Origin: an uncultured Ignavibacteriales bacterium
GTDB lineage: Bacteria; Zixibacteria; MSB-5A5; GN15; FEB-12
Assembly (NCBI GenBank): GCA_964520865.1
Contig: CAZFOY010000005.1
Coordinates: 5,737 to 69,736, forward strand
Reading direction: 5' to 3'
Length of the DNA: 64,000 bases
Shown here in pieces: positions 4,274 to 57,463 of the stretch; positions within the stretch are counted from its first letter, which is position 1; each line of letters starts with the position of its first letter. The position numbers were made by a program, and so were the translations under genes. The notes beneath the pieces were generated by a model. That model was given only the letters and a program-made list of their open reading frames with translations. It did no database searches and had not been told where the DNA came from.

Positions 4274-4731
4274 GACAGACTCTTCTCGTGCAATTCCCAG
4301 ACCAATAGCCAACTTTCTTTGAGCAGACTCCAGCCGACCGCACAGGCGATCATCCTTGCTCGAAGCTACTCTGTCTGTAACCGTTAAATCCGTTTAATGG
4401 TCTGTATAATAGTGACTTACACGTCCACAACGTAGTCGATACCAATCAGGCTATGACATTCCCCCCGTTGATTGGAACGCGAAGTGAGAAGAGAGAGAGA
4501 TAGTATGTTGAGAACTTCGAAGTCGAACTATGCAATCCCGCAACACGGTGCATAACAGTCAAATTTCTTGGAAAGGCTTCCTTAATCCTTTCGCTGGCGA
4601 CCTCGCGAAGAAACATCCTGTTTCCTGTCAAGTTATCGTGGGTCATTTTGTAGTTCCGGGATTCAGCATGTTAACTACTTATCTACCAAATTCTTAACAA
4701 TCAAGTGCCCGCTCGTGGCGGGGTAAGTAAT

Positions 4732-4761
4732 CCCCGGAAAGGGGGTTAACCCTTTCCGGGG
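4732..4761 (-). terminator. Perfect 12-bp-stem hairpin 20 nt downstream of the 4781..7369 gene (candidate intrinsic terminator)
   Basis: ccccggaaaggg (4732-4743), loop ggttaa, ccctttccgggg (4750-4761). The trailing sequence on the minus strand is ATTACTTACCC, only weakly U-rich. Confidence 0.5.
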
Positions 4762-4780
4762 TAAAAGTAAACCGATCAGG

Positions 4781-7369
4781 TTACTTCAGGAGGACCATCT
4801 TCTTGGTTTCGCTGAAGTTGTTGGCAGTCAACTTGTAGAAGTAGACGCCGGAAGCCTGAGCGGAAGCATCCCAACTGAATGAGTGCTCACCAGCTTCGAA
4901 CGAACCGTCGAAGGTCTTGACCAGCTGACCAGCTATGTTGTAGATGGACAGGCTGACCTGAGCCTTGACCGGCAGGCTGAAGCCGATGGTGGTCGTCGGG
5001 TTGAACGGGTTCGGGTAGTTCTGAGCCAGGCTGAAGTTAGCCGGGAGCAGTTTCGCGTTAACCGTCGCACCGTCGACCGAAGCGAACTCGGAGCTAATGA
5101 CGTTGCCATTGGCACTGAGGACGTTACCGTTGAAGGTGTTACCTTCCATGCTGAAGACCAGAGCGTGAGTCACGTTGGCTTCGCGATCGAAGGCATACTT
5201 CAGTTCCATGTTATCCGCATGGAGTACCGGGGTGACATCACCCTGGTAGGTCACGAGAGCGGCACCAACCGTACCGTTGACCACGACATTGCCGCCGTCA
5301 GCAGTATAGGTGATCGACGCCGGGGCGAGCTTCGGATAAGGAAGCGCGTCACCCTGGATGACACGAATCAGGTAGACCAGGTCGGCAACCGACAGGGTAA
5401 GACCGTCATTGTTGACATCGGTGGCGGCAATCTGTCCCTGGAGATTGATGTGGAAAACACCAATACCATAGACAAAATAGTTGGAGAAGAGAACCGCATC
5501 CGCGATTTCATACTTCACGTTGTTCAGGTTGATATCACCACGAGCGTCGATCGAGTCGGAGCAAGCGATGTTGATGCAACCGTTCTGGAAGCTGACCGCG
5601 GGATACGCAGTCTTCGCGCCGGAACCGCAAGTACCATCCTGCGGACCCTGGTAGGTCGGATAACCGACGGTACCGTCGATGATGTCAATACCGTTCGGCG
5701 GGTTTAGCGAAGCATCGCCGGTATAAATATGCTCGGCGATAAGCAGGCTGTCACCAGAGGCGGTGGAAAGGGCATTGTCGCCGCAATCCAGCCAGAAGAA
5801 CCGAATCGGAATGACCTGGCACTGGAAGGTGCGGTCGTTGGTAACCAGGAAGTCGAGATTGAACAGCGTGGACGGTTTCGGATCAGCCTCGAAGCAGGAC
5901 GGATGATTCGGACCATTGTTCGTCTCGGCAATCGCAGTCACACGGAGCAAGCCACTCGGGCAGGAGCCGGAGCAGTTACCATCGGCGCCGTAACGATAGG
6001 TGAAATATTCCCATCCGCAACCAGCCGGACCCCAATCGTCACCGATGGAGGCGGTCTGGAAGGACAGCGCAGAGTTATCATAAGCGATCAGCATGTCGTA
6101 ACCACCGATCGGACCACCCTGGGCGGCCAACTGGACCGGAACGATTACGTGCTGACCCTGGAAGACAAAGTTGCCGGACTGGTCGCCAACGCAAGGAATA
6201 ACGACCTGATACTGCGAACCAATGATGACTGTCACGTCGAATGTGCAAGTCGACGACAGATTGCCATCAGAGCCTTCGACAGTGATCGGCCAGGTGCCAC
6301 CGGTCTGACCGGCGTTGAGATGGATAGTTCCATTCGGATCAACGGTAACCGCGTTTCCAGCATCTGCGGCTAAGAAAGCAGCGGCATCACTCAGCGTGAA
6401 GGTAACCGGATCGCAATCGTCGGTAGCCGTAGCGCTGACTGTTGCGCCAGTGCCGTTGGACATGCTGACGTCACCCGGGCAGGTCACAACCGGAGCTTCG
6501 TTGGTGAAGTTCAGGTTGACTGTCGAAACTGCGGAGTTGCAACCGGCACCGGTAGCAACGATATCAACGCTTACAGAAGCACCGACATCAGCCAGGGTGG
6601 GCGAGTAGGACCACACACCGTTGGCGTCGATGGTACCGATAGAGGCCGTCCAGCCCGTGATCGGGTTCGGCGGAGTCTGCGGCGTGACTTCATGAGCGTC
6701 GAAATCAAAAGTCATGACATCGCAGTGGCTTCCGGTAAGGGAAGTCGGAGCATTGTCGATGACCGGGGGCTGGCACGGAGGAACGCCTGCGATATAGCAG
6801 TACGGGCCGCCCCATTCCGGAGCTTCACTGGGGTTTCCACCACCGGGAGCCCAAACCCAAGCATGGTTCGGCTTGGCCCAGGTGGAGTCGATACAAAGAG
6901 TCTCGCCTTCGGCAATGTTACCGGTGGCGATAGTCACTGAAGGAGCATCAAAACCGATCGGAAGACCATAACCGGTGCTTTTTGCACCGCCGACGCCGAC
7001 CGTGTCAGCACCAGCGCCGTCGTTGGCGCCGTAGCCGCTCGTGAAAGCAAAGATCAGCGCGAAGTGGTCGCCGGTTGTCCAGCCACCGCCGTCGGAACCT
7101 GGCCAGGGAAGAGTATCAATCACGGGAATCGTGAATGAACCGCCACCCATGGTGTAGACTTTCCAGGCGTTGTCAATACCACCGATCGTGTAAGGACGAT
7201 CGTTGGTATAACGCATCGTGAAGACCACCGGCGCGCCCGCGATAATCGAATCCGGGGTGCCGTAGGTGCTCGTCACGTTGTCTACTGAGATGCTCACGGC
7301 ATTGGCAAGCCCAAATGAAACGACTAAAGATGCCAGTACCAGGAAAAATGAAATACGTTTCATTTTCAT
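4781..7369 (-). CDS. Secreted Ig-like / cohesin-like / dockerin-like protein with T9SS C-terminal sorting domain
   Basis: MKMKRISFFLVLASLVVSFGLANA signal peptide, with AGGAG upstream (start may be the second ATG at 7363). Cohesin-like: QYQVVIPCVGDQSGNFVFQGQHVIVPVQLAAQGGPIGGYDMLIAYDNSALSF. Dockerin-like: DINLNNVKYEIADAVLF...DVNNDGLTLSVADLVYLIRVI (about nt 5345-5545). CTD: FSLAQNYPNPFNPTTTIGFSLP...GVYFYKLTANNFSETKKMVLLK. Confidence 0.9.
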   Translation of the reverse strand: MKMKRISFFLVLASLVVSFGLANAVSISVDNVTSTYGTPDSIIAGAPVVFTMRYTNDRPYTIGGIDNAWKVYTMGGGSFTIPVIDTLPWPGSDGGGWTTGDHFALIFAFTSGYGANDGAGADTVGVGGAKSTGYGLPIGFDAPSVTIATGNIAEGETLCIDSTWAKPNHAWVWAPGGGNPSEAPEWGGPYCYIAGVPPCQPPVIDNAPTSLTGSHCDVMTFDFDAHEVTPQTPPNPITGWTASIGTIDANGVWSYSPTLADVGASVSVDIVATGAGCNSAVSTVNLNFTNEAPVVTCPGDVSMSNGTGATVSATATDDCDPVTFTLSDAAAFLAADAGNAVTVDPNGTIHLNAGQTGGTWPITVEGSDGNLSSTCTFDVTVIIGSQYQVVIPCVGDQSGNFVFQGQHVIVPVQLAAQGGPIGGYDMLIAYDNSALSFQTASIGDDWGPAGCGWEYFTYRYGADGNCSGSCPSGLLRVTAIAETNNGPNHPSCFEADPKPSTLFNLDFLVTNDRTFQCQVIPIRFFWLDCGDNALSTASGDSLLIAEHIYTGDASLNPPNGIDIIDGTVGYPTYQGPQDGTCGSGAKTAYPAVSFQNGCINIACSDSIDARGDINLNNVKYEIADAVLFSNYFVYGIGVFHINLQGQIAATDVNNDGLTLSVADLVYLIRVIQGDALPYPKLAPASITYTADGGNVVVNGTVGAALVTYQGDVTPVLHADNMELKYAFDREANVTHALVFSMEGNTFNGNVLSANGNVISSEFASVDGATVNAKLLPANFSLAQNYPNPFNPTTTIGFSLPVKAQVSLSIYNIAGQLVKTFDGSFEAGEHSFSWDASAQASGVYFYKLTANNFSETKKMVLLK

Positions 7370-9457: not shown

Positions 9458-10372
9458 ATGCCCAGGCTGTCGCGTCAGACGAAAGAAACTATCAAGACCA
9501 TTGTGGTCTTAGTCATCGTTGCTCTCCTGTTGGTTGTCTATGTGATCTACCCCCTCAATCGAGTCAAGACGCTTATGGGCAGAGCTGACCTCGATTCTTA
9601 CAATCCCGACTCGCTCGCCGTGAACGATGTCTCTTTATTCCAGGAGGCCGGTCTCCCGGCCGATACATTTCGGGTCGATGCCGACGGCCTTACGACGGTC
9701 GCCGGAGTCTATATCCCCTGTAACACCGAGAATAACGAACACATACGAGGAACGGTACTTTTGCTTCCGCCGGAAGACAAGACGATCGACTCGCTTGTCT
9801 CCCTCGTGACCGAATTCCACGATTCCGGTTATGTCGTAGCGGCCTACGATCAGCGGGCCACCGGGTCATCGTCGGGGAAATACCACGGCGAGGGGCTGTA
9901 CGAGTCAAACGACCTGCAAGCCGTTATCAGTTATCTGGAGATCCGCGCCGAGATAATACACCCACTGACCGTAGTGGGCTTCAGACTGGGAGCGGACGCC
10001 AGTCTGCTGGCCGAACAGGAGGAAGGCAGGATCAATGCCGTGGTGGCGGTGAATCCGTACCTGACGACCCGCAATCTGCTCGATGAAACCAAGACCCGGA
10101 CAGGAACGCATTGGTTTCCTTTCTACCGCACGACCATGTTCTGGTGGTACAACATCCGCTCGAGTTACGCCGCGCAGAAGCGAACGGTCGATCAGATCAA
10201 GCCGGTTGTCTGTCGCACTCTCGTGCTCGTGCCTGAATCGCGCGAAACCACTCCCGCTGTCGAGAAGCTCAAGGATGTCTCACCTGCCGACAAACTCACT
10301 ATCGAGGCCCAGCCTCAAGGCCGCGATGAACTGAACCAGCGGATAATGTCATTTGTTGGCGGCGCAATGTAG
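9458..10372 (+). CDS. Membrane-anchored alpha/beta-hydrolase-fold protein, apparently lacking the catalytic Ser and His
   Basis: MPRLSRQTKETIKTIVVLVIVALLLVVYVIYPL is an N-terminal anchor. Fold pattern: GTVLLLPP...GYVVAAYDQRATGSSSG...DLQAVISYL...LTVVGFRLGADASLL...AVVAVNP. The nucleophile elbow reads G-F-R-L-G rather than G-x-S-x-G. Confidence 0.65.
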   Translation: MPRLSRQTKETIKTIVVLVIVALLLVVYVIYPLNRVKTLMGRADLDSYNPDSLAVNDVSLFQEAGLPADTFRVDADGLTTVAGVYIPCNTENNEHIRGTVLLLPPEDKTIDSLVSLVTEFHDSGYVVAAYDQRATGSSSGKYHGEGLYESNDLQAVISYLEIRAEIIHPLTVVGFRLGADASLLAEQEEGRINAVVAVNPYLTTRNLLDETKTRTGTHWFPFYRTTMFWWYNIRSSYAAQKRTVDQIKPVVCRTLVLVPESRETTPAVEKLKDVSPADKLTIEAQPQGRDELNQRIMSFVGGAM

Positions 10373-12000: not shown

Positions 12001-13566
12001 ATGGGCTGCCGCCTTATTTTCGCATTGGCGGTTTGGGGTGTGATGTCCGGCACCACTTGGGCTTCGCTGGGGTTGACACCTGAAAACTCGGTCATAATTC
12101 CGGAGATTACCGGCAACGTCCGCCAGGTTGGAATCGCCGACCTCGATCATGACGGGATCCTCGATCTGCTCGTCTGTGACAATCGGACAATCGTTGTCTA
12201 TTCGGTCGGCAGGGGATCAATCATCTTTCAATTTCATCTCGAATCGGATCCGCTCGATGTCGAGTTTCTTCTGGCCGATGTCAACGCCGACAGCATTCCT
12301 GATCTGGTCATCGGGCAGTACCTTGACTACCTACAAAAACCGCCGGATACGGTCTGCCGGATAGATCTGTTCGACGGCGCATCCGGCTTCGCTGGGCACG
12401 ATTCATGCTTCTATACAGCGAACCGCACTACTCCTGCGTCCTTTGGCGAACCGTTTCCATCGGTGGCACTGTCAGCTGGAGACTACGACGGCGATGGATT
12501 CAACGAACTCCGGGTGGCGTATCACCGGTACCAAACTCTAAACTTTTTTGGCACTGCTCGATTCAACAGTATCGGCGAAACGAGAACTTATCAGTCCTTC
12601 CCGACTTCGCCGCTCGACTCTATGCCGAGCTGCACCGATGCTCCTGTTCTCCTACGTACGGAAGATGGCCGTACACTTCAAGCAGTGACGAGGTATGAGG
12701 CTTCCGTGACCGCCGTCCCTTCGTCGGCAGAATACTCAACCACTCTGAGGTCTATGGTAGATGTCGTGAATGGTTCGGGGATGGCAGTAGCGACACTCGA
12801 AGATCACAGCAGCATGCCGTGCGTATCGGATTCGACTGAGCTGATAAGTATGTACCGGGCAGCAGAGGCAGGTAATCTGTATTCTTCGGACACGACCACC
12901 TCCGACTTACTGATCGATTACCGCGCCGCTTATCGCTGCTTCTCCGATGGTGCGGCCACTTTTGATTCCACCGAGCACACTTATCAGCTTTATCATCTTG
13001 ATGAATCTGACTCGCTGTTGTTTGTTCGGGAGATCCCGGACCTGGACGGCCTGGCGTGTCCGAAGTATCTCAAAGCGTATCCCCAGCAGTTGTTCGCCTT
13101 TGGTCGAAGCAGCGTCTATCAGGTTACGCCGCTCACGGGAAGTCTCGAGTCAATCGGCATTCTCCCCGACGTTGACACGATCTTGTGGAACAGCGGAACT
13201 GCGAATGCCGATTGCTTTGTCGTCGGAGTAAAGGGGAGCAAGATCGCCTGGCATCGAATCGATGAAGTGACCGATGTTCAAGATATCCCGGAAAACCTGC
13301 CTGACGGATTCGAGTTGGGGCGGATCTATCCCAACCCGTTCAACGCCGTGGTCACAATCCCGGTAACAATACCCCGGTCCGGACAGCTTTCCCTTGAGGT
13401 CTTCAATGTTCTGGGGCAATGCTTATATTCAATCGTGGACTCAAAGCAAGAGGCCGGAAGCAGGCTGTTCCGATGGGATGCGGGGAAATTCAGTTCAGGA
13501 GTCTACTTCGTTCGCGCGACGTTCGAAGGTCAGACCCGCACAACAAGAGCTGTCCTGCTCAAGTAA
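12001..13566 (+). CDS. Secreted FG-GAP/VCBS-repeat protein with T9SS C-terminal sorting domain
   Basis: Signal peptide MGCRLIFALAVWGVMSGTTWA. FG-GAP-like motifs: GIADLDHDGILDLLV, LLADVNADSIPDLVIG, AGDYDGDGFNELRV. CTD: FELGRIYPNPFNAVVTIPVTIP...GVYFVRATFEGQTRTTRAVLLK. Confidence 0.85.
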   Translation: MGCRLIFALAVWGVMSGTTWASLGLTPENSVIIPEITGNVRQVGIADLDHDGILDLLVCDNRTIVVYSVGRGSIIFQFHLESDPLDVEFLLADVNADSIPDLVIGQYLDYLQKPPDTVCRIDLFDGASGFAGHDSCFYTANRTTPASFGEPFPSVALSAGDYDGDGFNELRVAYHRYQTLNFFGTARFNSIGETRTYQSFPTSPLDSMPSCTDAPVLLRTEDGRTLQAVTRYEASVTAVPSSAEYSTTLRSMVDVVNGSGMAVATLEDHSSMPCVSDSTELISMYRAAEAGNLYSSDTTTSDLLIDYRAAYRCFSDGAATFDSTEHTYQLYHLDESDSLLFVREIPDLDGLACPKYLKAYPQQLFAFGRSSVYQVTPLTGSLESIGILPDVDTILWNSGTANADCFVVGVKGSKIAWHRIDEVTDVQDIPENLPDGFELGRIYPNPFNAVVTIPVTIPRSGQLSLEVFNVLGQCLYSIVDSKQEAGSRLFRWDAGKFSSGVYFVRATFEGQTRTTRAVLLK

Positions 13567-27776: not shown

Positions 27777-28022
27777 CTATTCTTCGTATTCGCCGAATAG
27801 ATCCTCCGACATATCATTTTCTTCGTAATATCCGTCCTCTTCCGCCTCGTTGTATCCGGCGGCGAGGTTGGCACACTCCAGAGAGCAGAAATACTCATCG
27901 CCCTGCATGACAGGGTCGCTCTCGATCTTCTCGTTGCATTGCGCACAATACATCGGTGCCTTACTCCCTTGTTTAATGGCGCGCCCGGCGGCGCTGTTGG
28001 ATATTTTGCGTCTACGTTCCAC
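27777..28022 (-). CDS. Small Cys4 (CxxC...CxxxC) zinc-ribbon-like protein with acidic tail
   Basis: YCAQCNEKIESDPVMQGDEYFCSLEC followed by the D/E/Y-rich tail EAEEDGYYEENDMSEDLFGEYEE. The real start may be the ATG at 27953 (AAGGGAG upstream). TTGACA-17-TAAGAT promoter-like element at about 28050-28078 on the minus strand. Confidence 0.55.
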   Translation of the reverse strand: MERRRKISNSAAGRAIKQGSKAPMYCAQCNEKIESDPVMQGDEYFCSLECANLAAGYNEAEEDGYYEENDMSEDLFGEYEE

Positions 28023-28137
28023 AGTTATCGGTTAAGCGCTCGTAATCTTAAACGCTCAAAATCTATGTGTCAATACATTTTTGGGTCGATTTTAGTTCCA
28101 GTGTACAGAGGGAAATAGCGCCCTGGCAAGGGATAAT

Positions 28138-29538
28138 TCAGACGTCTGAGCCGGTCCGGAGCGACGCCTGCTCCGTACGGGCGAAGAGGAAGAACAGGGC
28201 GAGTGAGAGAGCGAGGCCCGGGAAGATCGGTTGGATTCCGAACCAGTAGCCACCCCCCGAAGTCAGGTGCTTGCTCAAATACCAGATCAGGGCAATTCCT
28301 CCGCTCCCGGCGATAGAGATGAGCGCGGCGGTCGAAGGAAGACGGCGCTTCCCCACGAACGAGAAGAAGACCGGCACCAGAAGGGCTGGCGTGCCGATCG
28401 TCCCGAACAGGTACCAGATCTGGACGATCGAGCGAAATTTGAGAACGAGCAAAACGGCCACCACCGTAGTAACCACCAGACCGATCCGGGTATAGCGGGT
28501 CACCTTGTCTTCGGAGATCGGAAAAAGGCGCATGACGATATCCCGGCTGAAGGTCGAAGCGGCGATGAAGGCGTACGAGTCAATGGTAGACATGACGGTC
28601 GCCAGAAGAGCCAGGGCGAACAGCCCCAGCAAGCCGGGTGGCAGCACTTTCAAGGCAAGCGCCGGATACGACCCGACTGGGTTGGCCAGATCGGGAAGGA
28701 TCGCCCGGGCATATAAACCGCAGAAAGTTGTCATAAAATCGAAAAAGGCCCAGAAGGCAATCGAAATGAGAATACCGTTGCGGGCAACCTTAATATCTTT
28801 CGCCGCATAGCACCGTTGATAGAAAGCCGGCTCTATTAATGTGGCGAGGGCGATGAAATACCAGGAGATGATATACCATTTTGAATTGCCGCCGTTCCAG
28901 GTGAAGAGATCAGACGGAACATGGTCGATCAGATACGAGATACCGCCGTATTTCGATACGAGCAAGATCAGTAAGGCGGCGAACCCGAGGAACATCAGCA
29001 CGAACTGAAAGAGATCGGTCCTCACTACCGACTTGAATCCTCCGGTGTAGACGTAGACGACCGAAAATAGTGTCCCGGCCAGAATCCCCTGCCAGAATTG
29101 CCAGCCGAAGAGATACTGCGTCAAGGTTCCAATGCCGAGGATATAGGCGGCGGGGACGGTCATGAAATAAATGATGACCGACCCGGCGAGGGCGGTCTTG
29201 TTGTCGTAAGCACGGGCGAGTTGATCGGGGATAGTGAGAAGCTGCGAGTCGCGCGCTTTCTTCGCGAGGTACAGTGCGAACAAGAAGGCAGCCAGATAGT
29301 ACGGCAGTCCGAACACCAGCCAGTTGGACAAACCGAACCGGTAGCTGTACTCACCGACGCCGAGGATCCCACCGTACCAGGTGGAAACGAGCGATGCCAC
29401 GAATCCGGGCATGGTGAGCGCCCGGCCGCCGAGGATCAGCTCGGCGGCCGATTCATCACGGCGCGTGCTCTTGATCAGTCCCAGGACAAGCAGGACGACC
29501 AGATAGACAATGATCAGGCTGTAGTCAATCCAGTGCAT
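28138..29538 (-). CDS. Sodium:solute symporter family (SSF) transporter, co-transcribed with the riboswitch-controlled receptor
   Basis: About 13 predicted TM helices with SSF-like blocks (GGRALTMPGFVASLVSTWYGGILGVGE...). The start is 6 nt after the receptor stop. Confidence 0.8.
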   Translation of the reverse strand: MHWIDYSLIIVYLVVLLVLGLIKSTRRDESAAELILGGRALTMPGFVASLVSTWYGGILGVGEYSYRFGLSNWLVFGLPYYLAAFLFALYLAKKARDSQLLTIPDQLARAYDNKTALAGSVIIYFMTVPAAYILGIGTLTQYLFGWQFWQGILAGTLFSVVYVYTGGFKSVVRTDLFQFVLMFLGFAALLILLVSKYGGISYLIDHVPSDLFTWNGGNSKWYIISWYFIALATLIEPAFYQRCYAAKDIKVARNGILISIAFWAFFDFMTTFCGLYARAILPDLANPVGSYPALALKVLPPGLLGLFALALLATVMSTIDSYAFIAASTFSRDIVMRLFPISEDKVTRYTRIGLVVTTVVAVLLVLKFRSIVQIWYLFGTIGTPALLVPVFFSFVGKRRLPSTAALISIAGSGGIALIWYLSKHLTSGGGYWFGIQPIFPGLALSLALFFLFARTEQASLRTGSDV

Positions 29539-29544
29539 GGAAGG

Positions 29545-32091
29545 CTAAAACAGCTCCAGCTTGAGTTGGCCGTAGAACGATCGGGTTGACGCAATGTAAT
29601 ACTCCGCCCATCCGTCGACAACCGTTCTGCCATTGTCGTCGTAGGCGAAATCACCGCCGTAGCCCGAAGTCTCGAACTTCTTGTCGAACAGATTGTCGAT
29701 CTTCCCTTCGAACACCAAATTCCCCGCACCGAGCAGATTGCCGATCGTATACGACGCTGATATGGCCGAGACGGTGAATGGATCTACCGCGAGACTCTCT
29801 ACATTCCAGAGTTCGGCGTACTGCTTGCCGGCGTACCTCAGGCGATAGGTAACGCGCGCCCGGCCCGTCTTGTAGTCGAGAAGCACATTTCCGAGATAAT
29901 CGGGAAAGAACGGAATCGTTTTGTCTTTGTAGTCGACACTGAATCCATCGACATCGGCTACAAAATCCCTCACCCGATTGTAGCTGTAAGCGAAGTTAGT
30001 GCTCACCGTGAACTTCGGATTGAACTGATACGCTCCATTCAGCTCAACTCCCGCGTGCACCGAGCGCTTCGCATTGATCGTTATAGCAATACCGGTGTTC
30101 GGATTGATTCCGCCGTACGGCAGGATTTCGTTCTTGAACTCCATCCAGTAGAAATTGACGCCCAACGAATATCTTCCCGGTCGGTAGTTGCTCCCCAACT
30201 CCAGATCGTAAACGCGCTCCGATTTCGCTGTCGGATCTCCAAATTGGTATGTTGTTACTCCGTTTGAAACGGTAGAGTCGAGAATGGTCAGCGAAGGGAC
30301 CACGCTCGGATCGCCGGCGTCATAAATGGCGGCATCGCTTGGCGTGCGGGATGCTATCGAGAAGTTGGTATAGAGATTGAGGGCGTCATTGCAGGCATAG
30401 TTGAATCCGATTCGTGGCGAGAAGAACGCCCAGTTGACATTATATTTGTATCCGGGGAACGGAAGCATCCGCTCCTGGTCGAAATCGTATTTTAGGAATC
30501 TGAACTGTGCCGTCACCTGCGTGCTCAGCTTGTCGTTGAACTTGTAGTACTCCTGACCGTAGATGGAGCCGACATACTTCTTCCCGTTGTACTGATAATA
30601 TCTGTGGCGCGGATCGAGCGACCCGGTGACATGCTCGGCGTACACCACCTGTCCCCAGTGATCTGAATTGAAATAGTAGAAAGAACCTCCGATAGAGTGT
30701 TTCCCTCGGCTCCAGATCATGTCCAGTCGGGGATTCCAGCCGGTCTGATTCTTGTTCACCCACTGCTGACGAACGACATTGCCGGAATCGTACGGCATCG
30801 AAGTCGCGGGGTTGATATCGATGTACGTGCTGTCGATACCGTAGTCTGATAACGCGCTATTCGCCTTCAGCTGCTCGTAGTAGCCGTCGCCATGGATATG
30901 GTAGAGGGTATTGTAGAGTGTGATGCGATCGGTTAAGCGATATGTATTTTGCAACTGATAGTGGGGCTGATTGAAATTGTCCGTCTCGTTGTCGTAGGTC
31001 AGCGGATTGTAGCGATAGTCTTTCGCAATCTCATCGCGCGGCGCACCGTAATACGCCAGGTGCATACGCATCGGGCCGCCGTAGACGTACAGCTCGGTCG
31101 TCATCCTCGGATCGAGGCGGGCGAGCGAGAAATAGTACGACCAACCGTCATACCAGCTGTCGTGGCGAAATCCCCCCGTGCGTTGTTTGGAGAACCGTCC
31201 GCCGAATTGCCAGGTCCCGTTGATGAGACCGGACGAGTACTCGACCGACTGCTTGTACATATCGCTAATTCGATTGCCGTTGAATGTATAGTCGCCGTAG
31301 CCGGAGACAATCGAAGCTTCGCGCTGGTTGCTCAGTGCGCTGGTAACAATGTTGACCGTCCCGCCGAACGAAGCATCGCCGTAGAGCGAATTCCCCACCC
31401 CGCGCTGGATCTGAATATCTGAGACGTTGGCGGCGAAATCGGGCAGATCGACAAAATAGGTGGCCTGGTCTTCCGGATCGTTCAGCGGCACGCCGTTGAT
31501 GTACGTCACGATCCGCTTGTCATCAAATCCGCGGATCTTCATGTAGCTGTAGCCGAGCGAAGATCCGGCGTCGGAATAGGCATACAGGTTCGGCGTCGAT
31601 TCGAGAAGAAGCGGGAATTCATCGACCGTGTAGTCACGCTTGATATCATCCTGAGAGAAATTGTCGAATGCGATCGGGGTGATCCCTTCTTCGGCCCGGT
31701 CTGAGCGCACGAGAATGTCCTGACCGCGGTAGTATCGTGGCTGAAGAACGACGAGACTCGGTACTTTGGTCAGCTCGAATTGTTTCGAGAGGAAGCCGAC
31801 CGAAGAAAACGTAAGGCGCGAGACACCTTCGGGCAAAGACAGCGAATACTTGCCGTTTGCATCGGTGATCGTACCGACGCCGGAGAGATTGGTGACGACC
31901 GAGGCTCCGACAATCGGATCTCCATTTTGATCGGCGACAGTGCCGGTGGCTGTTTCAGTTGCGCGTGCGGCCCCGACAAGAAGGAGCAAAGCGACAATTG
32001 GGAGGCAGAATTGGACAATGAATCTCATTCGAATCGCTCGAACGAGTGCGGAATCGAGCGGTCTGCTCGACTGTGAGAGTTTGTGGGTCAT
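29545..32091 (-). CDS. TonB-dependent outer-membrane receptor with N-terminal carboxypeptidase-regulatory-like domain
   Basis: GTVADQNGDPIVGASVV...GKYSLSLPEG (CarbopepD_reg-like). Plug: IRGFDDKRIVTYINGVPLNDPE...IQRGVGNSLYGDASFGGTVNI. Barrel ending ...YGQLKLELF. GAGG 9 nt before the ATG at 32091. Confidence 0.92.
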   Translation of the reverse strand: MTHKLSQSSRPLDSALVRAIRMRFIVQFCLPIVALLLLVGAARATETATGTVADQNGDPIVGASVVTNLSGVGTITDANGKYSLSLPEGVSRLTFSSVGFLSKQFELTKVPSLVVLQPRYYRGQDILVRSDRAEEGITPIAFDNFSQDDIKRDYTVDEFPLLLESTPNLYAYSDAGSSLGYSYMKIRGFDDKRIVTYINGVPLNDPEDQATYFVDLPDFAANVSDIQIQRGVGNSLYGDASFGGTVNIVTSALSNQREASIVSGYGDYTFNGNRISDMYKQSVEYSSGLINGTWQFGGRFSKQRTGGFRHDSWYDGWSYYFSLARLDPRMTTELYVYGGPMRMHLAYYGAPRDEIAKDYRYNPLTYDNETDNFNQPHYQLQNTYRLTDRITLYNTLYHIHGDGYYEQLKANSALSDYGIDSTYIDINPATSMPYDSGNVVRQQWVNKNQTGWNPRLDMIWSRGKHSIGGSFYYFNSDHWGQVVYAEHVTGSLDPRHRYYQYNGKKYVGSIYGQEYYKFNDKLSTQVTAQFRFLKYDFDQERMLPFPGYKYNVNWAFFSPRIGFNYACNDALNLYTNFSIASRTPSDAAIYDAGDPSVVPSLTILDSTVSNGVTTYQFGDPTAKSERVYDLELGSNYRPGRYSLGVNFYWMEFKNEILPYGGINPNTGIAITINAKRSVHAGVELNGAYQFNPKFTVSTNFAYSYNRVRDFVADVDGFSVDYKDKTIPFFPDYLGNVLLDYKTGRARVTYRLRYAGKQYAELWNVESLAVDPFTVSAISASYTIGNLLGAGNLVFEGKIDNLFDKKFETSGYGGDFAYDDNGRTVVDGWAEYYIASTRSFYGQLKLELF

Positions 32092-32189
32092 GACAGTAAC
32101 CTCGCTTAGAACGCTTCAGGGTTAAGCAAGATTCCGTCCTGAATCGATAGGTCGGCCAGATACTGGCTCAGGGGATGCGGTTGACATCT

Positions 32190-32270
32190 CCGTTTCCCTA
32201 CGCCGGTATTATCCGGATCAGGTCGAGGGGGTATGATCTCAGGCGGTCGTTATTACGCCACCCCCAACGG
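32190..32270 (-). promoter_or_regulatory. TPP (THI-box) riboswitch aptamer
   Basis: Minus-strand RNA: CCGUUGGGGGUGGCGUAAUAACGACCGCCUGAGAUCAUACCCCCUCGACCUGAUCCGGAUAAUACCGGCGUAGGGAAACGG. It contains the conserved GGGGUG, CUGAGA, ACCC, ACCUGAUC-GGAUAAU-CC-GCGUAGGGAA blocks and a closing P1 (CCGUU/AACGG), about 98 nt upstream of the receptor ATG. Confidence 0.9.
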
Positions 32271-32441
32271 AATTTGTGTTTCTGGGAATAATTACGGCCC
32301 GGCCCGACGGAAAGGCAAGGGGAAAATGCAGGATCCCGATCACTCAGCAGATCGTTTTGGCATGCCCCGAGCCGGCCTATGATTCGGTGAGACGATACGT
32401 ATAGTAGATAGTATCCGAGAATAGACACCAGGAGGTCGGAT

Positions 32442-32870
32442 TTGGAAAGAGATAAGCTGATTGAATTCACTGTCTTCCTATTACGCGTGGTTGTGGGACT
32501 GCTGTTCTTCCAGCACGGGAGTATGAAGTTCCTCGGCTGGTTCGGCGGCATGCCGGGCGGTGAGCCGGGCGCCACGGCACCCTTATTCACGCAGGTTGGG
32601 CTGGCCGGCGTGCTCGAGTTCTTCGGCGGAATTGCGATTATGTTTGGATTGTTCACCCGCACTGTGTCATTCATCCTGTGCGGTGAAATGGCTGTTGCTT
32701 ACTGGCAATTCCATTTCCCACAGGGAACCTGGCCGATCGTCAATCATGGTGAGCCGGCCGTCCTCTTTTGTTTCATTTTCTTGTTCCTGGCGGCCTATGG
32801 AGGGGGCAATTGGAGTGTCGATGCACTGATCCGTCGAAAGGGGACCAAAACGGTTCCTGATCCCGCTTAG
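32442..32870 (+). CDS. DoxX-family membrane protein
   Basis: LRVVVGLLFFQHGSMKFLGWFGG...GVLEFFGGIAIMFGLFTR. TTG start with AGGAGG 6 nt upstream. Confidence 0.85.
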   Translation: MERDKLIEFTVFLLRVVVGLLFFQHGSMKFLGWFGGMPGGEPGATAPLFTQVGLAGVLEFFGGIAIMFGLFTRTVSFILCGEMAVAYWQFHFPQGTWPIVNHGEPAVLFCFIFLFLAAYGGGNWSVDALIRRKGTKTVPDPA

Positions 32871-52125: not shown

Positions 52126-53193
52126 TTACAGCTTGGACCAGACGAAAGTATAATGACCGCTGGTGGGAACGCCGCCGATATTGGCATAGTAACTGTCTAT
52201 CCGAACTTTATATACCGCTCCGGCCGTGCGCACGAGATAGACGTGTGCTTTCGAGGTCAACTGGTGGCTCGTGCTGTTGTAATTGTACCAATCGGTAAGA
52301 GCGGAACCCGGAATGTCGGGGAACATTGGCGCCCCAACCGGTTGAGAGGTGAAGCCGTTTATGTCTCGGGGGTCGCTCAGGGTGGTATAGGCCTGGAATG
52401 CTTCGCATCCTCCGGAACCGTTCGGACCGCTATTCTGCATCACGTTGTAGTTGCTGAAACCAAGATCCCAGTCAAGAGAACTTCTCGGGTCCGATGGGTT
52501 GACTTGTGTTCCTGTCGAAAAGTCAAAGTAACCGGTTCCGGTCCCGGCGACAACCTGTGAATGCAGTACCGGCCCGGGGAGGCTGAGTGATCCGGCCGTG
52601 TCCTGATAATAGTATGTAAGATAAACTGTTCCCATGTCCGGCGGCATAGTAGCCCCGACCAAAGAATCGATCTGGAATTTGACGTAGTGTTGTCCCGTAG
52701 CATCCTTCATCGAATAGACATCGCGAGTTATTTCAACTGTATGATTGGTCATGTTGTACGTGTACCAGTTGCTGATGAAGTAGTCGATAAAGTCGGAGGT
52801 CCAATTGGCTCCCAGCGTGTCGCCGATGCCGACGGAGTCAAAATTCATGACTCCCAGATCCGCCCCTTCGACATCCCCGTTGTTCACAGTCGATGTTCCT
52901 CCGTTCAGCTTGATTACTTCCCGCTTGAATGCGATATCCCAGATATCGGCAGCCGGTTTCGGCGTTCCGTTGGATACGGTGTCGTGTGCCCCAAACGAGA
53001 AATAGGCAAAATTGTTGTAGTCCGAGGCGTCGATAACGGTAGTCCAATAGCCTCCGGTAGAGTCCCAGGTCGAGGTAGCAGTACTGGAATGAGTCGGTCC
53101 GCCGGAACTGACCGGATTGTTGTTGCTACTGCCACAACCGATCATTCCAAATGCGAACAGCATTAGAATCGAGAACGTAAGTAAGAGCTTCAT
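52126..53193 (-). CDS. Lipoprotein with two tandem HmuY-like domains
   Basis: Lipobox FGMIGC. TTVIDASDYNNFAYFSFGAHDTV...IWDIAFKREVIKLNGG...HYVKFQIDS resembles P. gingivalis HmuY (TVTIDASKYETWQYFSF...NWDMALHRYDVRLNCG...IAKVQFTDY). A second copy follows: GYFDFSTG...DWDLGFSNYNVMQNSG...VYKVRIDSYY. Confidence 0.7.
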   Translation of the reverse strand: MKLLLTFSILMLFAFGMIGCGSSNNNPVSSGGPTHSSTATSTWDSTGGYWTTVIDASDYNNFAYFSFGAHDTVSNGTPKPAADIWDIAFKREVIKLNGGTSTVNNGDVEGADLGVMNFDSVGIGDTLGANWTSDFIDYFISNWYTYNMTNHTVEITRDVYSMKDATGQHYVKFQIDSLVGATMPPDMGTVYLTYYYQDTAGSLSLPGPVLHSQVVAGTGTGYFDFSTGTQVNPSDPRSSLDWDLGFSNYNVMQNSGPNGSGGCEAFQAYTTLSDPRDINGFTSQPVGAPMFPDIPGSALTDWYNYNSTSHQLTSKAHVYLVRTAGAVYKVRIDSYYANIGGVPTSGHYTFVWSKL

Positions 53194-53204
53194 ATGAGTC
53201 TCCT

Positions 53205-55430
53205 TCAGTGTTTCAATCCGAAATCGTATTTCAGCCCCGCAAAGACTTCAAAGCCGGGCCAGTAACCATAAGTAACATTGGTTGTGTTCAGAAGGTTCTC
53301 GAATCGCAGGGAGGCCTCGAATCCGTTCTGGAATCTCTTGAATAGGTTGACGTTAAGCTGCGTTCGTGACGGCGCCTCTTCCGGCGCACCTTCGTTACCT
53401 CCAGTGTTCGTGATCGGTACCCAGAGTTTCGGCGACTGGTAGAATCCCCAGAGTGTTGCGCCGGCGTTCCATCGATTGATTGTCCCGGTCAGATAGCACT
53501 TGACTGTGTGGTCGGGGTTGTTGAGAAGTTTCTGGTGAGTCTCCAGATTGCGGGTGTAGAGATAGTCATAGGAGAGCGAGAAGTCCAGAGCCCGGCTCAG
53601 GCGTACTCGCGACTCCCATTCAATCCCCTTGGTAACCGCATTCTCGATATTTTGATAGACGTACACGCCGCGCCAATACGGATCGGGGAAGCCGATCAGG
53701 GTGAAATCGATGAGGTTGTGGAGCCGGTTATAGAAGAAGGTGATTCGATGCATCCCGATCGACCCGTACGAAAACTCCGCCGATACCGAGCTGTTGACCG
53801 AAGTCTCCTGTTTCAATTTCGAAAAATCCAGCCCGGTGAGATCGTACGGTGAGTATTGGATGGCCGATCCGCCGTAGACGATGTAGCCGGCGGCGGTGTG
53901 ATCGAAAATGAAGTACTGCTCCTTCAGCGATGGCGCCCGGAAACCTCGTCCGATAAACCCGCGAAACTTGAGTCCTTCGCTCGGTTGAAACATGACATTC
54001 AACGATGGATTCACGTGATTGCCGAACGAGCTGTGATGTTCGTATCTGACGCCCCCGACAAAATTCAGGGCATTGATCGGCGAGTATTCGTACTGCAGAT
54101 AGCTCGCCACCGATTTATCGGCCCGCGCCTGGTCGATCAACTCGCTCGATGTCAGATCCTGGTAATCGTAGTCGAGTCCGTAAGTTGCTACGTGATGATG
54201 ACCGATGACATAGTTCGCGGTGTAGGAAGCTTCAAAGAAGGCATCTTTGGTAATCGACGTATCTACCCAGTATGATTGAGCATACTTGTTCCAGGCGTGA
54301 TCGTAGTATGTTCCGAACAGACGAAGTTTCATCGAATACTTATCGCCGGACATATACTCGAGGCTGGTCGAGCCTTCGTAATGCTTGTTTACTTCGTCAT
54401 CATCGTATGTATACGTCGTGTCCTCGTTGACATTTTTCGCCACGATCTCCGATTCGATCCATTTCTTGTTCTCGTACATGAAGCGGCCTGAACCGGAGAC
54501 TCTCCATTTATCAGAAAGCAGGTGGGTGATCTTGTTCGAGAGATTGACCCGGCGAATTCGTTCTTCCCCGTTCGTCTGGGGAGTAGATTTGTTGAGGTCG
54601 AATCCCTGTGTCGAGAAGTACTTCCCGCCCAGAGTGAGGCCGGTGCGGCTTCCGCCGTACTGCAGGTCGAACGATGGATTCGAGCTGGTATGGCTGCCGT
54701 AGTCGAAATACAGGCTTCCCTTCCCTGTACTCATCTCCGGTTGCCTGGTGATGATGTTTATTACCCCGCCCATTGCGTCGGAACCGTACAACGTGGAACC
54801 GGTTCCTTTGACAATTTCTATCTTCTTGACGTTTTCCAGTGAATACTGGCTTAGATCTATCGACCCACGCACCCTTCCGACCGCGCGCTCTCCATCGACC
54901 AGGACAAGGACTCGATCGTTATCGATTCCTCTGATGGTCGCCCCCTGGCCGGAGAGGTCCTGATTAATGTTGATGCCTATGGACGATGAAAGCGCTTCAT
55001 CGACAGTAGTAGCGCCGGTTCGTTTGAAATCACGCTGGCTGACCACCTCCGTCTCCACTGGTACATCCTTTAACAGGTGGGGTGAACGGGTCCCGGTGAC
55101 GACAACATCGTTCAGAACCCAGGGGGACGGGTGCAGGAAGACGTCTTGAGTCTGAGTACCGGACAGAGACACGGCAGTCGTGTCGCTCAAGTCGTAAGAA
55201 ACGTGAGAGATGACCAGGTGGTAAAGACCGTCCGGAATATCTGCGAAGCTGTAAATCCCCTGTTTATTCGTACGGGTAGTCTTGCCGGTCTCGATTATTC
55301 TTACGTTGGCGTTGTCGATCGGATTGTTGGTTTCGGAATCGAGAACCCGTCCGGTCAGTTCCGCACCAGCGGCCGCGACTCCTGAAATGATAAAGGCAAG
55401 CAGAAACAGTCCCGTAACAATCCTTGTCAT
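53205..55430 (-). CDS. TonB-dependent outer-membrane receptor with carboxypeptidase-regulatory-like N-terminal domain
   Basis: GRVLDSETNNPIDNANVRI...GIYSFADIPDGLYHL. Plug: IRGIDNDRVLVLVDGERAVGR...IEIVKGTGSTLYGSDAMGGVINI. Barrel ending ...FAGLKYDFGLKH. Confidence 0.9.
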   Translation of the reverse strand: MTRIVTGLFLLAFIISGVAAAGAELTGRVLDSETNNPIDNANVRIIETGKTTRTNKQGIYSFADIPDGLYHLVISHVSYDLSDTTAVSLSGTQTQDVFLHPSPWVLNDVVVTGTRSPHLLKDVPVETEVVSQRDFKRTGATTVDEALSSSIGININQDLSGQGATIRGIDNDRVLVLVDGERAVGRVRGSIDLSQYSLENVKKIEIVKGTGSTLYGSDAMGGVINIITRQPEMSTGKGSLYFDYGSHTSSNPSFDLQYGGSRTGLTLGGKYFSTQGFDLNKSTPQTNGEERIRRVNLSNKITHLLSDKWRVSGSGRFMYENKKWIESEIVAKNVNEDTTYTYDDDEVNKHYEGSTSLEYMSGDKYSMKLRLFGTYYDHAWNKYAQSYWVDTSITKDAFFEASYTANYVIGHHHVATYGLDYDYQDLTSSELIDQARADKSVASYLQYEYSPINALNFVGGVRYEHHSSFGNHVNPSLNVMFQPSEGLKFRGFIGRGFRAPSLKEQYFIFDHTAAGYIVYGGSAIQYSPYDLTGLDFSKLKQETSVNSSVSAEFSYGSIGMHRITFFYNRLHNLIDFTLIGFPDPYWRGVYVYQNIENAVTKGIEWESRVRLSRALDFSLSYDYLYTRNLETHQKLLNNPDHTVKCYLTGTINRWNAGATLWGFYQSPKLWVPITNTGGNEGAPEEAPSRTQLNVNLFKRFQNGFEASLRFENLLNTTNVTYGYWPGFEVFAGLKYDFGLKH

Positions 55431-55573: not shown

Positions 55574-56548
55574 TCAGCGCGAATATTTCCTGGCGGCCTT
55601 CTCGAACTTCGCCCGTGTGCGGCTTTTGATCAGTTTGTCGAGCCGGCGGATATCATCTTCGGAAAGACGGTTCAGCTTGTCCGGAAATTTACCCGACGCG
55701 ATCTCTCTAAACAGCTTGTCCATGCGTGTCCGGGTCGACTTATCCACTATCCGCGGGCCGTTCAGCAGTGAGCCATACCGTGCGGCAACCGAAATTCGGT
55801 GGTACATTCCCTCGACTCCGAACTTGCGAATTAAGTCGATAATGAGGTCGAGCTGATAGGCAACCTCGAGATAAGCATTCTCTGCCGGGATTCCATTTTT
55901 CAGCAAGGTGTCGAATCCAGCGATGATCAACTCGGCCATTCCGCCGCACAGGACGGCCTGTTCGCCGAACAAATCACCGACCGCTTCATTCCGGAAGGTC
56001 GTTTTCACGAGCCGCTTTCGGGCAAATCCGAGCGCCCGGGCCAGTTTGAACGCGGTACCGGCAGCCTTTCCGGTGGAGTCCCGGTGAACGGCATAGAATG
56101 CTGAGAGGTCCCGTTCGCCGAGGTACTTGGCACGCACGGCGATTCCGGGAGCATGAGGCGCAAGGAGGATTACATCGCAGTTCCTCGGCGGCTTTACGAA
56201 CCCAAAGTGTACCGAGAGGCCGTGCAAAAACACCAGCGTGCTTCCCGGCTTCAGGTTCTCCCTGATCTCTTGTTCGTAAATGCGACCGTGGAGATGATCG
56301 GGCAACGCCATCACTATAAGTGTAGCCTGACTGGTTGCTTCGCCGACAGTGCCTATCTCAGTGAATTTGTCTTTTCGTGCCCGCGTTCTGGATTTGGAGT
56401 TTCGCTTCAGACCAAGCAGAACGCGGAAGCCTGAATCGCGAAGATTCAGCGCTATCGCCCGGCCCTGTGAACCGTATCCAAGGACAGCGATCGCGGCATT
56501 TTTTCGTTTCGCGGAAGGCATAGATGCAATATACTTGCAGAGATTCAA
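55574..56548 (-). CDS. ilvC: Ketol-acid reductoisomerase (class I)
   Basis: NAAIAVLGYGSQGRAIALNLRDSG, ...PHAPG..VR..Y...G.., ...FGEQAVLCGG.... The start may be the ATG at 56521. Confidence 0.85.
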   Translation of the reverse strand: MNLCKYIASMPSAKRKNAAIAVLGYGSQGRAIALNLRDSGFRVLLGLKRNSKSRTRARKDKFTEIGTVGEATSQATLIVMALPDHLHGRIYEQEIRENLKPGSTLVFLHGLSVHFGFVKPPRNCDVILLAPHAPGIAVRAKYLGERDLSAFYAVHRDSTGKAAGTAFKLARALGFARKRLVKTTFRNEAVGDLFGEQAVLCGGMAELIIAGFDTLLKNGIPAENAYLEVAYQLDLIIDLIRKFGVEGMYHRISVAARYGSLLNGPRIVDKSTRTRMDKLFREIASGKFPDKLNRLSEDDIRRLDKLIKSRTRAKFEKAARKYSR

Positions 56549-56573
56549 TTGTCCAACGGGAAGAATCGATTCG

Positions 56574-57458
56574 ATGGAACAGTCTCATTTCGAATGTCTG
56601 CGGAAAATTGTTGAAGCTGCCTTAAAAGAGGACGTCAACAAAGGGGATCTTACTTCCCTGGCCTGCCTTGAACCGAATCCGATGAAAGCAAACATCGTGG
56701 CCAAGTCGGACGGGATCCTGTCCGGAGTGAAACCCGCGCTGCTCACGTTTGACATTGTCGACTCGGCGAATGTCGTTCGTCCACTGAAAAGCGATTCCGA
56801 GTCTTTCTCCAAAGGGGACGTGATCTTTGAGCTGGAAGGCTTCAATCAGACTCTTCTCACTGCCGAGCGGACGGCTCTCAATTTCCTCGGTCACCTCAGT
56901 GGAATCGCGACCCTCACCGGTAAGTTCGTGGACCAGGTCAAAGGCACGCGATGCCGCATCCTGGATACGAGGAAGACGGCGCCGGGGCTCCGCATGCTCG
57001 AAAAGGCGGCAGTGGTCGACGGCGGCGGCTGCAACCATCGATTCGGGCTCTACGACATGGTGCTTATCAAGGACAACCACATCGCTTCGGCCGGATCGAT
57101 CGCCGAAGCAGTCAAACGAACGAAGGAGTTTCTTACAACCCCGGAATTTCGGCTACAATTCGATGCCAGGGCGGAAGACATTCAGATTGAAGTCGAGGTT
57201 GCAACTGAATCGCAGCTTCGCGAAGCTATCGAATCCGGGATCACGCGGATTCTTTTGGATAATCAGTCGAACGATGGACTGGCTCAATTGGTCTCGGTCG
57301 CCCGACAACTGAACGACGCGGTCGAACTCGAAGCTTCAGGAAATGTCAGCCTCGATTCGGTAGCCAGAGTCGCCGCAACCGGTGTCGACTACATCTCGAT
57401 TGGTGCTCTCACCCATTCCGCAATCTCCTCGGACTTCTCAATGAAGGCGGTCGAATAG
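56574..57458 (+). CDS. nadC: Nicotinate-nucleotide pyrophosphorylase (quinolinate phosphoribosyltransferase)
   Basis: ALKEDVNKGDLTS, LTAERTALNFLGHLSGIAT, ILDTRKTAPGLRMLEKAAVVDGGGCNHRFGLYDMVLIKDNHI. The ATG at 56574 avoids the antisense overlap with ilvC. Confidence 0.93.
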   Translation: MEQSHFECLRKIVEAALKEDVNKGDLTSLACLEPNPMKANIVAKSDGILSGVKPALLTFDIVDSANVVRPLKSDSESFSKGDVIFELEGFNQTLLTAERTALNFLGHLSGIATLTGKFVDQVKGTRCRILDTRKTAPGLRMLEKAAVVDGGGCNHRFGLYDMVLIKDNHIASAGSIAEAVKRTKEFLTTPEFRLQFDARAEDIQIEVEVATESQLREAIESGITRILLDNQSNDGLAQLVSVARQLNDAVELEASGNVSLDSVARVAATGVDYISIGALTHSAISSDFSMKAVE

Positions 57459-57463
57459 TCTCA

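Follow-up and report, generated by a model that had tools for sequence, protein, structure and literature searches.

The 64-kb stretch of contig CAZFOY010000005.1 analysed here (the window) was confirmed to contain a genuine two-gene operon, in which a thiamine pyrophosphate (TPP) riboswitch is followed by a gene for an 848-amino-acid TonB-dependent receptor (TBDR) and a gene for a 466-amino-acid carrier of the sodium:solute symporter family (SSF). Judged from its sequence and from those of its relatives, this operon probably serves thiamine scavenging, under repression by the TPP riboswitch, in a Zixibacteria-like bacterium of the Fibrobacterota–Chlorobiota–Bacteroidota (FCB) group. The best matches of both proteins were found in Zixibacteria and in metagenome-assembled genomes (MAGs) of the FCB group.

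The whole window was searched against Rfam with cmscan, and a single family was returned, the TPP riboswitch RF00059, which matched over model positions 1-105 of 105 with 74.1 bits (gathering score 54.3, E = 9.9e-13). A sequence-only reading of the same DNA had placed a THI-box at 32190-32270 on the minus strand and proposed this search as a check; the box falls within the RF00059 match (Table 1). The CUGAGA and ACCUGAUC-GG-UAAU-CC-GCGUAGGGA motifs were invariant in aligned homologous aptamers (sets of 7 and 9), and RNAalifold recovered helices P1-P5 from an alignment of nine leaders of the window's clade, the set on which the platform analysis is based. A candidate sigma-70-like promoter precedes the aptamer, and 9 related leaders share a CTTGC(C/G)-N17/18-TAnnTT pattern at the same distance on the 5' side of their aptamers; the consensus promoter scan missed the candidate at this position. 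If used, it would start the transcript a few nucleotides ahead of the aptamer.

The receptor ATG at 32091 lies 86 nucleotides from the 3' end of the aptamer as matched by Rfam. Its use as the start is supported by the ortholog in locus L002 (86% identical), which retains the N-terminal extension and has no internal Met. The receptor stop is separated from the SSF ATG by 6 nucleotides (29539-29544), and a site scan revealed no promoter or terminator of note between the two genes, which argues for their being carried on one transcript. Riboswitch, TBDR and sodium:solute symporter are found in one transcription unit, as in the operon type of Caldithrix abyssi discussed below. The same two genes, 6 nucleotides apart, had been called in the sequence-only reading, and Pfam confirmed their domains. 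A promoter-like site, TTGACA-17-TAAGAT (28045-28073), comes after the SSF stop and ahead of a small Cys-rich open reading frame (ORF), so that the riboswitch-controlled unit consists of just the two transporter genes. Only GGAG, 15 nucleotides ahead of the ATG, precedes the SSF start, which thus lacks a well-spaced Shine–Dalgarno (SD) sequence; coupling of SSF translation to that of the receptor is plausible from this arrangement. A 158-amino-acid minus-strand ORF lying over the riboswitch (32198-32674) was rejected as spurious, the true gene there being DoxX, encoded divergently on the plus strand (32442-32870).

Pfam searches of the receptor located PF13715 CarboxypepD_reg at residues 49-108, PF07715 Plug at 138-245 (46.8 bits) and the PF00593 barrel at 359-801 (107.4 bits). 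Two further features were read by eye, the hydrophobic stretch MRFIVQFCLPIVALLLLVGAARA as a candidate signal peptide (approximately residues 22-44) and QDILVRSDR at 124-132 as a candidate TonB box. No specific NCBIfam model matched the receptor, the top model being TonB-hemin with 82 bits versus a cut-off of 317. A TPP riboswitch lies directly 5' of the receptor gene, both in the window and in the 15 related loci, a position expected of a thiamine-specific TBDR (OMthi/BT2390, omr1), and receptor orthologs (30-90% identity) always flank the SSF gene.

Conservation of the gene pair and identity of the carrier

Relatives of the operon were collected by genome- and metagenome-wide pattern scans, which gave 11 and 8 loci, respectively, and by a wider sampling of 12 exact-protein look-ups. 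The order riboswitch-TBDR-SSF was found in 15 further, independent loci from Zixibacteria and unclassified MAGs (listed in Table 1), including three complete Zixibacteria chromosomes (L006, L008 and L020). Across these loci identity to the window proteins is 48-97% for the SSF and 32-90% for the TBDR, and the two diverge in step. Adjacency of the TBDR and SSF genes also persists on truncated contigs, among them contigs of Calditrichaeota (L009, P0068) and of Ignavibacteria MAGs. In a 1238-amino-acid protein of Candidatus Eisenbacteria (P0245, NOT34640.1) the two were merged into one gene call with the SSF first and the TBDR second, the reverse of the window order; the TBDR of this merged call gave 342 bits to the window receptor, compared with 67 bits for a second TBDR of the window (see below). 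In a merged call from another high-GC lineage (P0333), the C-terminal part of a TBDR precedes an SSF. Going by these gene calls, the pairing persists in either gene order in high-GC lineages. Recurrent adjacency, joint divergence and merged calls indicate that TBDR and SSF form a co-inherited module and are not chance neighbours. The outer- and inner-membrane uptake route related to thiamine that had been proposed from the sequence gains support from the riboswitch, from the domains and from this recurrence in 15 other loci.

Three of the sampled loci have features of their own. Upstream of the SSF gene of L001 (10001-11395), a locus taken up again below, direct tandem repeats of about 120 bp (GCACCCCTGTCATCCTCGCGCAGGCGGGGAGCCAGGCGACGGACC...) occupy positions 9640-9990, which suggests a rearrangement or repeat insertion at the 5' end of the operon. 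At the 5' end of the receptor gene of L025 (3030-3135) a motif of about 40 nucleotides (GACCGTCAGGTCACA..CTCGACTT.GTCGAGCGC) occurs twice, which may reflect a small repeat insertion; this receptor was called 105 amino acids longer (953 amino acids), from a start whose frame differs from that of the conserved SD-ATG. In a Bdellovibrionota MAG (L028:5001-7818) the subfamily SSF gene overlaps a downstream CARME (carnosine N-methyltransferase, PF07942) gene and has neither a TPP riboswitch nor a thiamine pyrophosphokinase (TPK) gene.

The carrier was compared with known SSF proteins by profile searches, BLAST and tree building, with reference sequences taken from the supplement of PMC11452348. It matched PF00474 with 123.6 bits (gathering score 22.8, E = 1.2e-35) and fell below every NCBIfam equivalog cut-off. 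Identity as PanF was rejected (TIGR02119, 122 bits versus an equivalog cut-off of 328.05), as was identity as PutP (NCBIfam, 90 bits versus a cut-off of 516). Bit scores in BLAST were 104 with Escherichia coli PanF, 74 and 48 with two PutP proteins, 45 with SAR11 ThiV (24% identity), 40 with Candida Dur31 and 24 with an oomycete SSSP. The window SSF was compared exhaustively with 1.84 billion cluster representatives, and 318 clusters reached E <= 1e-30; the cluster-member names of distant representatives gave no functional annotation. In a neighbour-joining tree the window SSF and 108 full-length proteins (from the best 150) formed one clade, outside PanF/PutP and outside ThiV/SSSP/SSSQ. A hidden Markov model (HMM) built for this clade gave at least 327 bits with its members, compared with 144 for PanF, 122-131 for PutP, 86 for ThiV, 65 for SiaT and 22 for SSSP. 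Membership of ThiV/SSSP was rejected on the BLAST score, the separate clade and the score on the family HMM. The sequence-only reading had brought up ThiV for this carrier and proposed placing it relative to PanF and ThiV; that placement put it in a clade apart from both, and the ThiV idea does not hold. ThiV of M. flagellatus was placed via its SSSP assignment by McRose et al., who equate the two (PMC4260697), and not by its own sequence; for thiV, a paper by Rodionov's co-authors (PMC11223231) refers to the SAR11 paper, Carini 2014.

In the unwound region of transmembrane segment 1 the subfamily has the signature T-W-Y-G-G (W54 and Y55 in the window protein), compared with S-D-M-S-G in PutP and T-Y-I-S-A in PanF, and E63 is conserved. 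The pair S317/T318 in transmembrane segment 8 aligns with PutP S340/T341, which we take to be Na2-site residues; Ser is present in 102/109 and Thr in 83/109 family sequences. An AlphaFold2 model of the carrier (predicted local distance difference test, pLDDT, 90.5; predicted TM-score, pTM, 0.89) gave TM-scores of 0.77-0.85 with SGLT2, CHT1, SiaT and SMCT1, a likeness that speaks for the generic SLC5/LeuT fold only. The carrier is a candidate Na+:thiamine symporter, its coupling to Na+ being suggested by the aligned Na2-site pair and the SLC5/LeuT-fold model.

Distant members of the subfamily were located by profile search followed by contig look-up, and several adjoin genes or RNA elements linked to thiamine. 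In Elusimicrobiaceae the SSF gene overlaps a downstream TPK gene (PF04263 + PF04265); in Marinimicrobia the TPK gene lies upstream and one base is common to TPK and the SSF start; and in L033 the TPK gene lies 64 nucleotides ahead of the SSF gene. Two members, on a Tara Oceans contig (L031) and a Cloacimonetes contig (L034), lie directly behind their own TPP riboswitch and have no TBDR. The TPK- or riboswitch-linked members scored 521-600 bits on the family HMM, and T-W-Y-G-G was present in 6/6. TPK acts on thiamine itself. Because TPK adjoins subfamily members in three arrangements, and in C. abyssi as well, intact thiamine is favoured over hydroxymethylpyrimidine (HMP) or thiazole. Intact thiamine is the most likely substrate of the pair; for the window protein this is suggested by the gene neighbourhoods of its relatives. 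The substrate had been left undefined among thiamine, HMP and thiazole in the sequence-only reading; TPK adjacency in the subfamily narrows this choice in favour of intact thiamine. As observations on the two contigs, the SSF match of the Tara Oceans contig is also present in NCBI and ENA, and the Cloacimonetes contig has divergent TPP riboswitches at 214-312 (minus strand) and 681-782 (plus strand), one preceding the SSF gene and the other a gene cut by the contig end.

On balance we favour a broader view, taken as one joint proposition. The window SSF would be a member of an unnamed bacterial family of Na+:thiamine symporters, distinct from ThiV/SSSP, PnuT, ThiT and ThiBPQ, comprising a few hundred 50%-identity clusters and occurring in Zixibacteria, Calditrichota, Ignavibacteria, Eisenbacteria, Marinimicrobia, Cloacimonadota, Elusimicrobiota and Bdellovibrionota. 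It would have replaced PnuT as the inner-membrane partner of an OMthi-type receptor in FCB lineages, and the output of the riboswitch would have been rewired, between termination and SD/AUG sequestration, within one phylum.

Expression platform and proposed mechanism

A terminator scan of the leader detected no intrinsic terminator between the aptamer and the receptor ATG, and the SD sequence, GAGGT (RNA GAGGU), lies 7 nucleotides ahead of this ATG. Three helices make up the platform in the nine aligned leaders (Table 1). In the small hairpin GGAGAUG/CAUCCCC, 88.9% of cells are paired; its CAUCCCC strand might instead form a helix with the 5' strand of P2 (GGGGGUG), and the hairpin may have a role in the leader. 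The hairpin in the variable spacer contains one covarying pair (AU:4, CG:2, UA:1, UG:1). The third helix is a hairpin over the SD sequence and the start codon, the sequestor. Its core has a free energy of -17.0 kcal/mol in the window and of -13.5 to -19.5 kcal/mol across the nine leaders; it appears in the RNAalifold consensus and was kept in 9/9 leaders. A length of 16-20 bp over SD and AUG is constant while the sequences of apical stem and loop drift. The sequestor has 96.5% of cells paired, compared with 30-47% for the three platform helices jointly when their 3' partners were slid. The SD was paired in every minimum-free-energy fold and in every aptamer-constrained fold. Given the lack of a terminator and the conserved hairpin over SD and start codon, control in the window's clade is probably translational, as the sequence-only reading had supposed on seeing no terminator.

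Relatives with an SSF about 50% identical to that of the window have a different platform. In these loci the aptamer is followed by a GC-rich stem and a U-run, for example AAGCCC...GGGCUUUUUUGUU in L005-L008. As read from the leaders, the type of expression platform differs between clades, a terminator in one and an SD/AUG sequestor in the other, on near-identical aptamers, and the difference looks like a natural swap.

These features can be assembled into a working mechanism. At the outer membrane the TBDR would capture thiamine, and perhaps thiamine phosphate esters too, for transfer into the periplasm with energy supplied through TonB; the SSF carrier would then bring thiamine through the inner membrane in symport with Na+, and a TPK encoded elsewhere in the genome would turn it into TPP. 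At high TPP the aptamer would be bound and P1 closed, leaving the downstream anti-SD arm free to form the hairpin of about 20 bp over the receptor SD and AUG and so block initiation, and SSF translation would fall with that of the receptor through coupling. At low TPP the sequestor might instead be weakened by a helix between the 5' strand of P1, (A/G)UUCCGU, and the ACGGAAU of the anti-SD arm. Pairing of this P1 strand with ACGGAA(U/C) is compatible in 63/63 cells of the alignment, with AU, GU and GC at one position. This last step, in which P1 would free the SD, is the most tentative of the series.

Table 1. Features of the operon and of related loci (coordinates refer to the window unless a locus is named)
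Feature	Coordinates	Strand	Details
SSF ORF	28138-29538	-	466 aa; PF00474
TBDR ORF	29545-32091	-	848 aa; CarboxypepD_reg + Plug + TonB_dep_Rec_b-barrel
Sequestor hairpin	32088-32142	-	5' arm UCAGGACGGAAUCUUGCUU pairs with AAGCGAGGUUACUGUCAUGA; covers SD 32099-32103 and the UG of the start codon (32089-32091)
Variable spacer hairpin	32155-32167	-	GCCAG-UAUC-UGGC; forms in 9/9 leaders despite differing sequences
Small hairpin	32171-32191	-	GGAGAUG...CAUCCCC; overlaps 3' strand of P1; in all 9 clade leaders
TPP aptamer (THI element)	32178-32275	-	P1 UUCCGUU/AACGGAG; CUGAGA motif 32237-32242
Candidate sigma-70-like promoter	32289-32318	-	-35 TTGCCT 32313-32318; 18-nt spacer; -10 TAATTA 32289-32294
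Further loci with riboswitch-TBDR-SSF			L002, L004-L008, L012-L014, L016, L020, L021, L025, L035, L036
Terminators of the terminator clade	L004:7424-7470, L005:7358-7400, L006:7378-7420, L007:203-260, L008:7381-7420		GC-rich stem and U-run after aptamer

Alternative explanations and surroundings of the operon

Several results weigh against the interpretation of the locus as a riboswitch-repressed thiamine importer, some of them touching the substrate and others the regulation. Identity between the window SSF and its TPK-linked relatives is only 33-44%, and specificity could have shifted over this distance. No TPK gene adjoins the operon, be it in the window or in the Zixibacteria loci sampled, and no thi biosynthesis, salvage or kinase gene was detected among essentially all ORFs of at least 90 amino acids in the window. 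Pfam scans of the window likewise gave no match to PF04263/PF04265 or to a PnuT-type domain. Among ten ORFs downstream of the SSF gene in eight more distant TBDR-SSF loci there was no TPK, the matches being to HTH/M78, radical SAM or SIMPL, or none. The SSF ortholog of L001 (67% identical), the sole exception to the pairing, has neither TBDR nor riboswitch, and a search in E-value mode found no weak riboswitch in this locus.

Since the survey of thi genes spans the 64-kb window, precursor auxotrophy is compatible with these results, and the pair might import a precursor or breakdown product such as HMP, aminomethylpyrimidine (AmMP), formylaminomethylpyrimidine (FAMP) or the thiazole moiety, as was proposed for SAR11 ThiV; SSF carriers under TPP riboswitches have been tied to HMP uptake in SAR11 (PMC11452348). 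We nevertheless regard this as quite improbable. The window carrier lies outside the ThiV/SSSP clade and its own subfamily has the TPK neighbours described above, whereas no thiD, tenA, thiM or thiE gene was found next to the SSF gene in about 30 loci inspected, and the partner TBDR in C. abyssi resembles the Bacteroides thiamine receptor (PMC5317091). That the carrier moves some other vitamin-like solute, for example pantothenate, with the riboswitch controlling the receptor only or being incidental, is barely credible. PanF is indeed among the best characterised relatives by sequence, together with PutP and the structures of SMVT and CHT1, but the scores for PanF are far below the panF cut-off and below those of subfamily members on the family HMM. 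Moreover, riboswitch and TPK provide links to thiamine that are independent of each other and are met repeatedly across phyla, and the short gap free of promoter and terminator places both genes on one transcript.

As for regulation, the core pairs of the sequestor are invariant, and covariation therefore neither supports nor refutes the hairpin. The anti-sequestor helix was not significant, as 205/500 shuffles attained the observed value, and in constrained folds with this helix imposed the SD stayed partly paired in most of the nine leaders. In B. thetaiotaomicron, transcripts of riboswitch-adjacent transporter genes were altered little by thiamine (PMC5613172), so an aptamer beside a transporter gene does not guarantee strong regulation. 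A riboswitch whose main effect is on transcript level, by way of Rho-dependent termination or of mRNA decay set off by the untranslated leader, with the sequestor secondary, would accommodate the lack of covariation in the sequestor core and the thermodynamically unconvincing anti-sequestor. It would also agree with the use of transcription termination in sister clades and with the E. coli tbpA and thiM TPP riboswitches, which couple translational control to changes at the mRNA level (PMC11487190). We consider it rather unlikely as the main mode of control, however, given a leader with no intrinsic terminator and a 16-20-bp hairpin over SD and AUG in every leader aligned. The two accounts are compatible because both layers can coexist, and kinetic (co-transcriptional) control or an added Rho/decay layer on top of translational sequestration is possible.

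The operon lies among oriC-proximal housekeeping genes (rnpA, yidD, yidC, mnmE, mnmG, rsmG, parA and parB), and greA, galT, alr and uvrA are also present in the window. The small acidic Cys-rich ORF that follows the promoter-like site behind the SSF gene (27777-27953, minus strand; MYCAQCNEKIESDPVMQGDEYFCSLECANL..., 58 amino acids from ATG) had no Pfam match; a 50-60-amino-acid gene is called beside greA in L020, L021, L025, L035 and L036. The second TBDR of the window (741 amino acids, 53205-55430) is followed by an HmuY-like protein (52126-53193), both on the minus strand, and the two (52126-55430), which probably serve haem uptake as a pair, have no relation to the riboswitch operon. Vitamin-related genes cluster at positions 56349-59430, with one for a nadC-like quinolinate phosphoribosyltransferase, one for a birA-like biotin ligase and one for the S component of an energy-coupling factor (ECF) transporter (58909-59430, minus strand). 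Three large secreted proteins (1808-7369 and 12001-13566) have Por_Secre_tail domains, the C-terminal sorting domains of the type IX secretion system, which fits an FCB-group organism with that system.

Significance and relation to known systems

If the family assignment is correct, a defined inner-membrane thiamine carrier family would be added to the short list of bacterial vitamin B1 importers. Surveys of B1 auxotrophy in metagenomes seek thiB, thiT, thiV, pnuT, cytX and omr1 (e.g. PMC10881298); such surveys would overlook the SSF family and misjudge B1 acquisition in Zixibacteria, Marinimicrobia and Elusimicrobia of sediment, groundwater and gut. A terminator and an SD sequestor on nearly identical aptamers ahead of orthologous genes also make a handy natural pair for work on the exchange of riboswitch outputs. 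The general picture is unchanged, as architecture and interpretation were already in print, for C. abyssi and, in a version with PnuT, for Bacteroides. The main residual value lies in defining a putative thiamine-carrier family outside current B1-gene surveys.

The closest published counterpart is the C. abyssi locus Cabys_3975-3977, described by Kublanov et al. (2017) as TPP riboswitch - TBDR - sodium-solute symporter - TPK, with the riboswitch 163 nucleotides upstream of a TBDR stated to be highly similar to BT2390 (PMC5317091). The locus was read as serving thiamine uptake in a probable auxotroph, in one paragraph of genome annotation that contains no family definition or experiment (PMC5317091). 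C. abyssi, from a related FCB-group phylum, has riboswitch, TBDR and symporter in the same order as the window; its locus includes a TPK gene, whereas the window operon does not. Other Calditrichaeota sequences with the TBDR-SSF pair suggest that the window proteins are orthologous to the Cabys proteins. With this architecture already known from 2017, the window locus is not unprecedented and is a further member of a published architecture.

In Bacteroides, OMthi (BT2390) - PnuT (BT2396) - TPK (tnr3) operons are under TPP riboswitches (Costliow and Degnan, 2017; PMC5613172), and the pairing of TPP-regulated TonB receptors with PnuT mentioned for Bacteroidota in the sequence-only reading matches these operons. 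Genetics links both BT2390/OMthi and PnuT to thiamine uptake, the transporters of both membranes mattering at <=100 nM thiamine (PMC5613172). The Bacteroides and window operons share a logic of TPP riboswitch, outer-membrane TBDR and inner-membrane thiamine carrier. They differ in the inner-membrane partner, which is a PnuT facilitator in Bacteroides and an SSF protein (PF00474) in the window, and in the TPK gene, which the window operon lacks. The receptors differ as well: that of the window has 848 amino acids and an N-terminal CarboxypepD_reg domain, compared with about 741 amino acids for BT2390.

The ThiV/SSSP/SSSQ proteins (M. flagellatus, SAR11_0811, algae and Candida) are likewise SSF-fold carriers under TPP riboswitches that move thiamine or HMP. 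SSF carriers under THI elements had been thought uncharacterised in the sequence-only reading, contrary to the genetics that tie Dur31/SSSQ to thiamine uptake (PMC5997356) and to the HMP uptake measured in whole cells and attributed to SAR11 ThiV (PMC11452348). These carriers belong to an SSF clade different from that of the window protein, the SAR11 protein is assigned to HMP, and no TBDR partner is reported for them in the literature found, whereas the window carrier has one. PanF, PutP and SLC5 carriers (SMVT, CHT1) are the nearest characterised relatives of the window SSF by sequence and fold and have the Na2 Ser-Thr pair in common with it; the genomic links of the window carrier, however, are to thiamine and not to pantothenate or proline.

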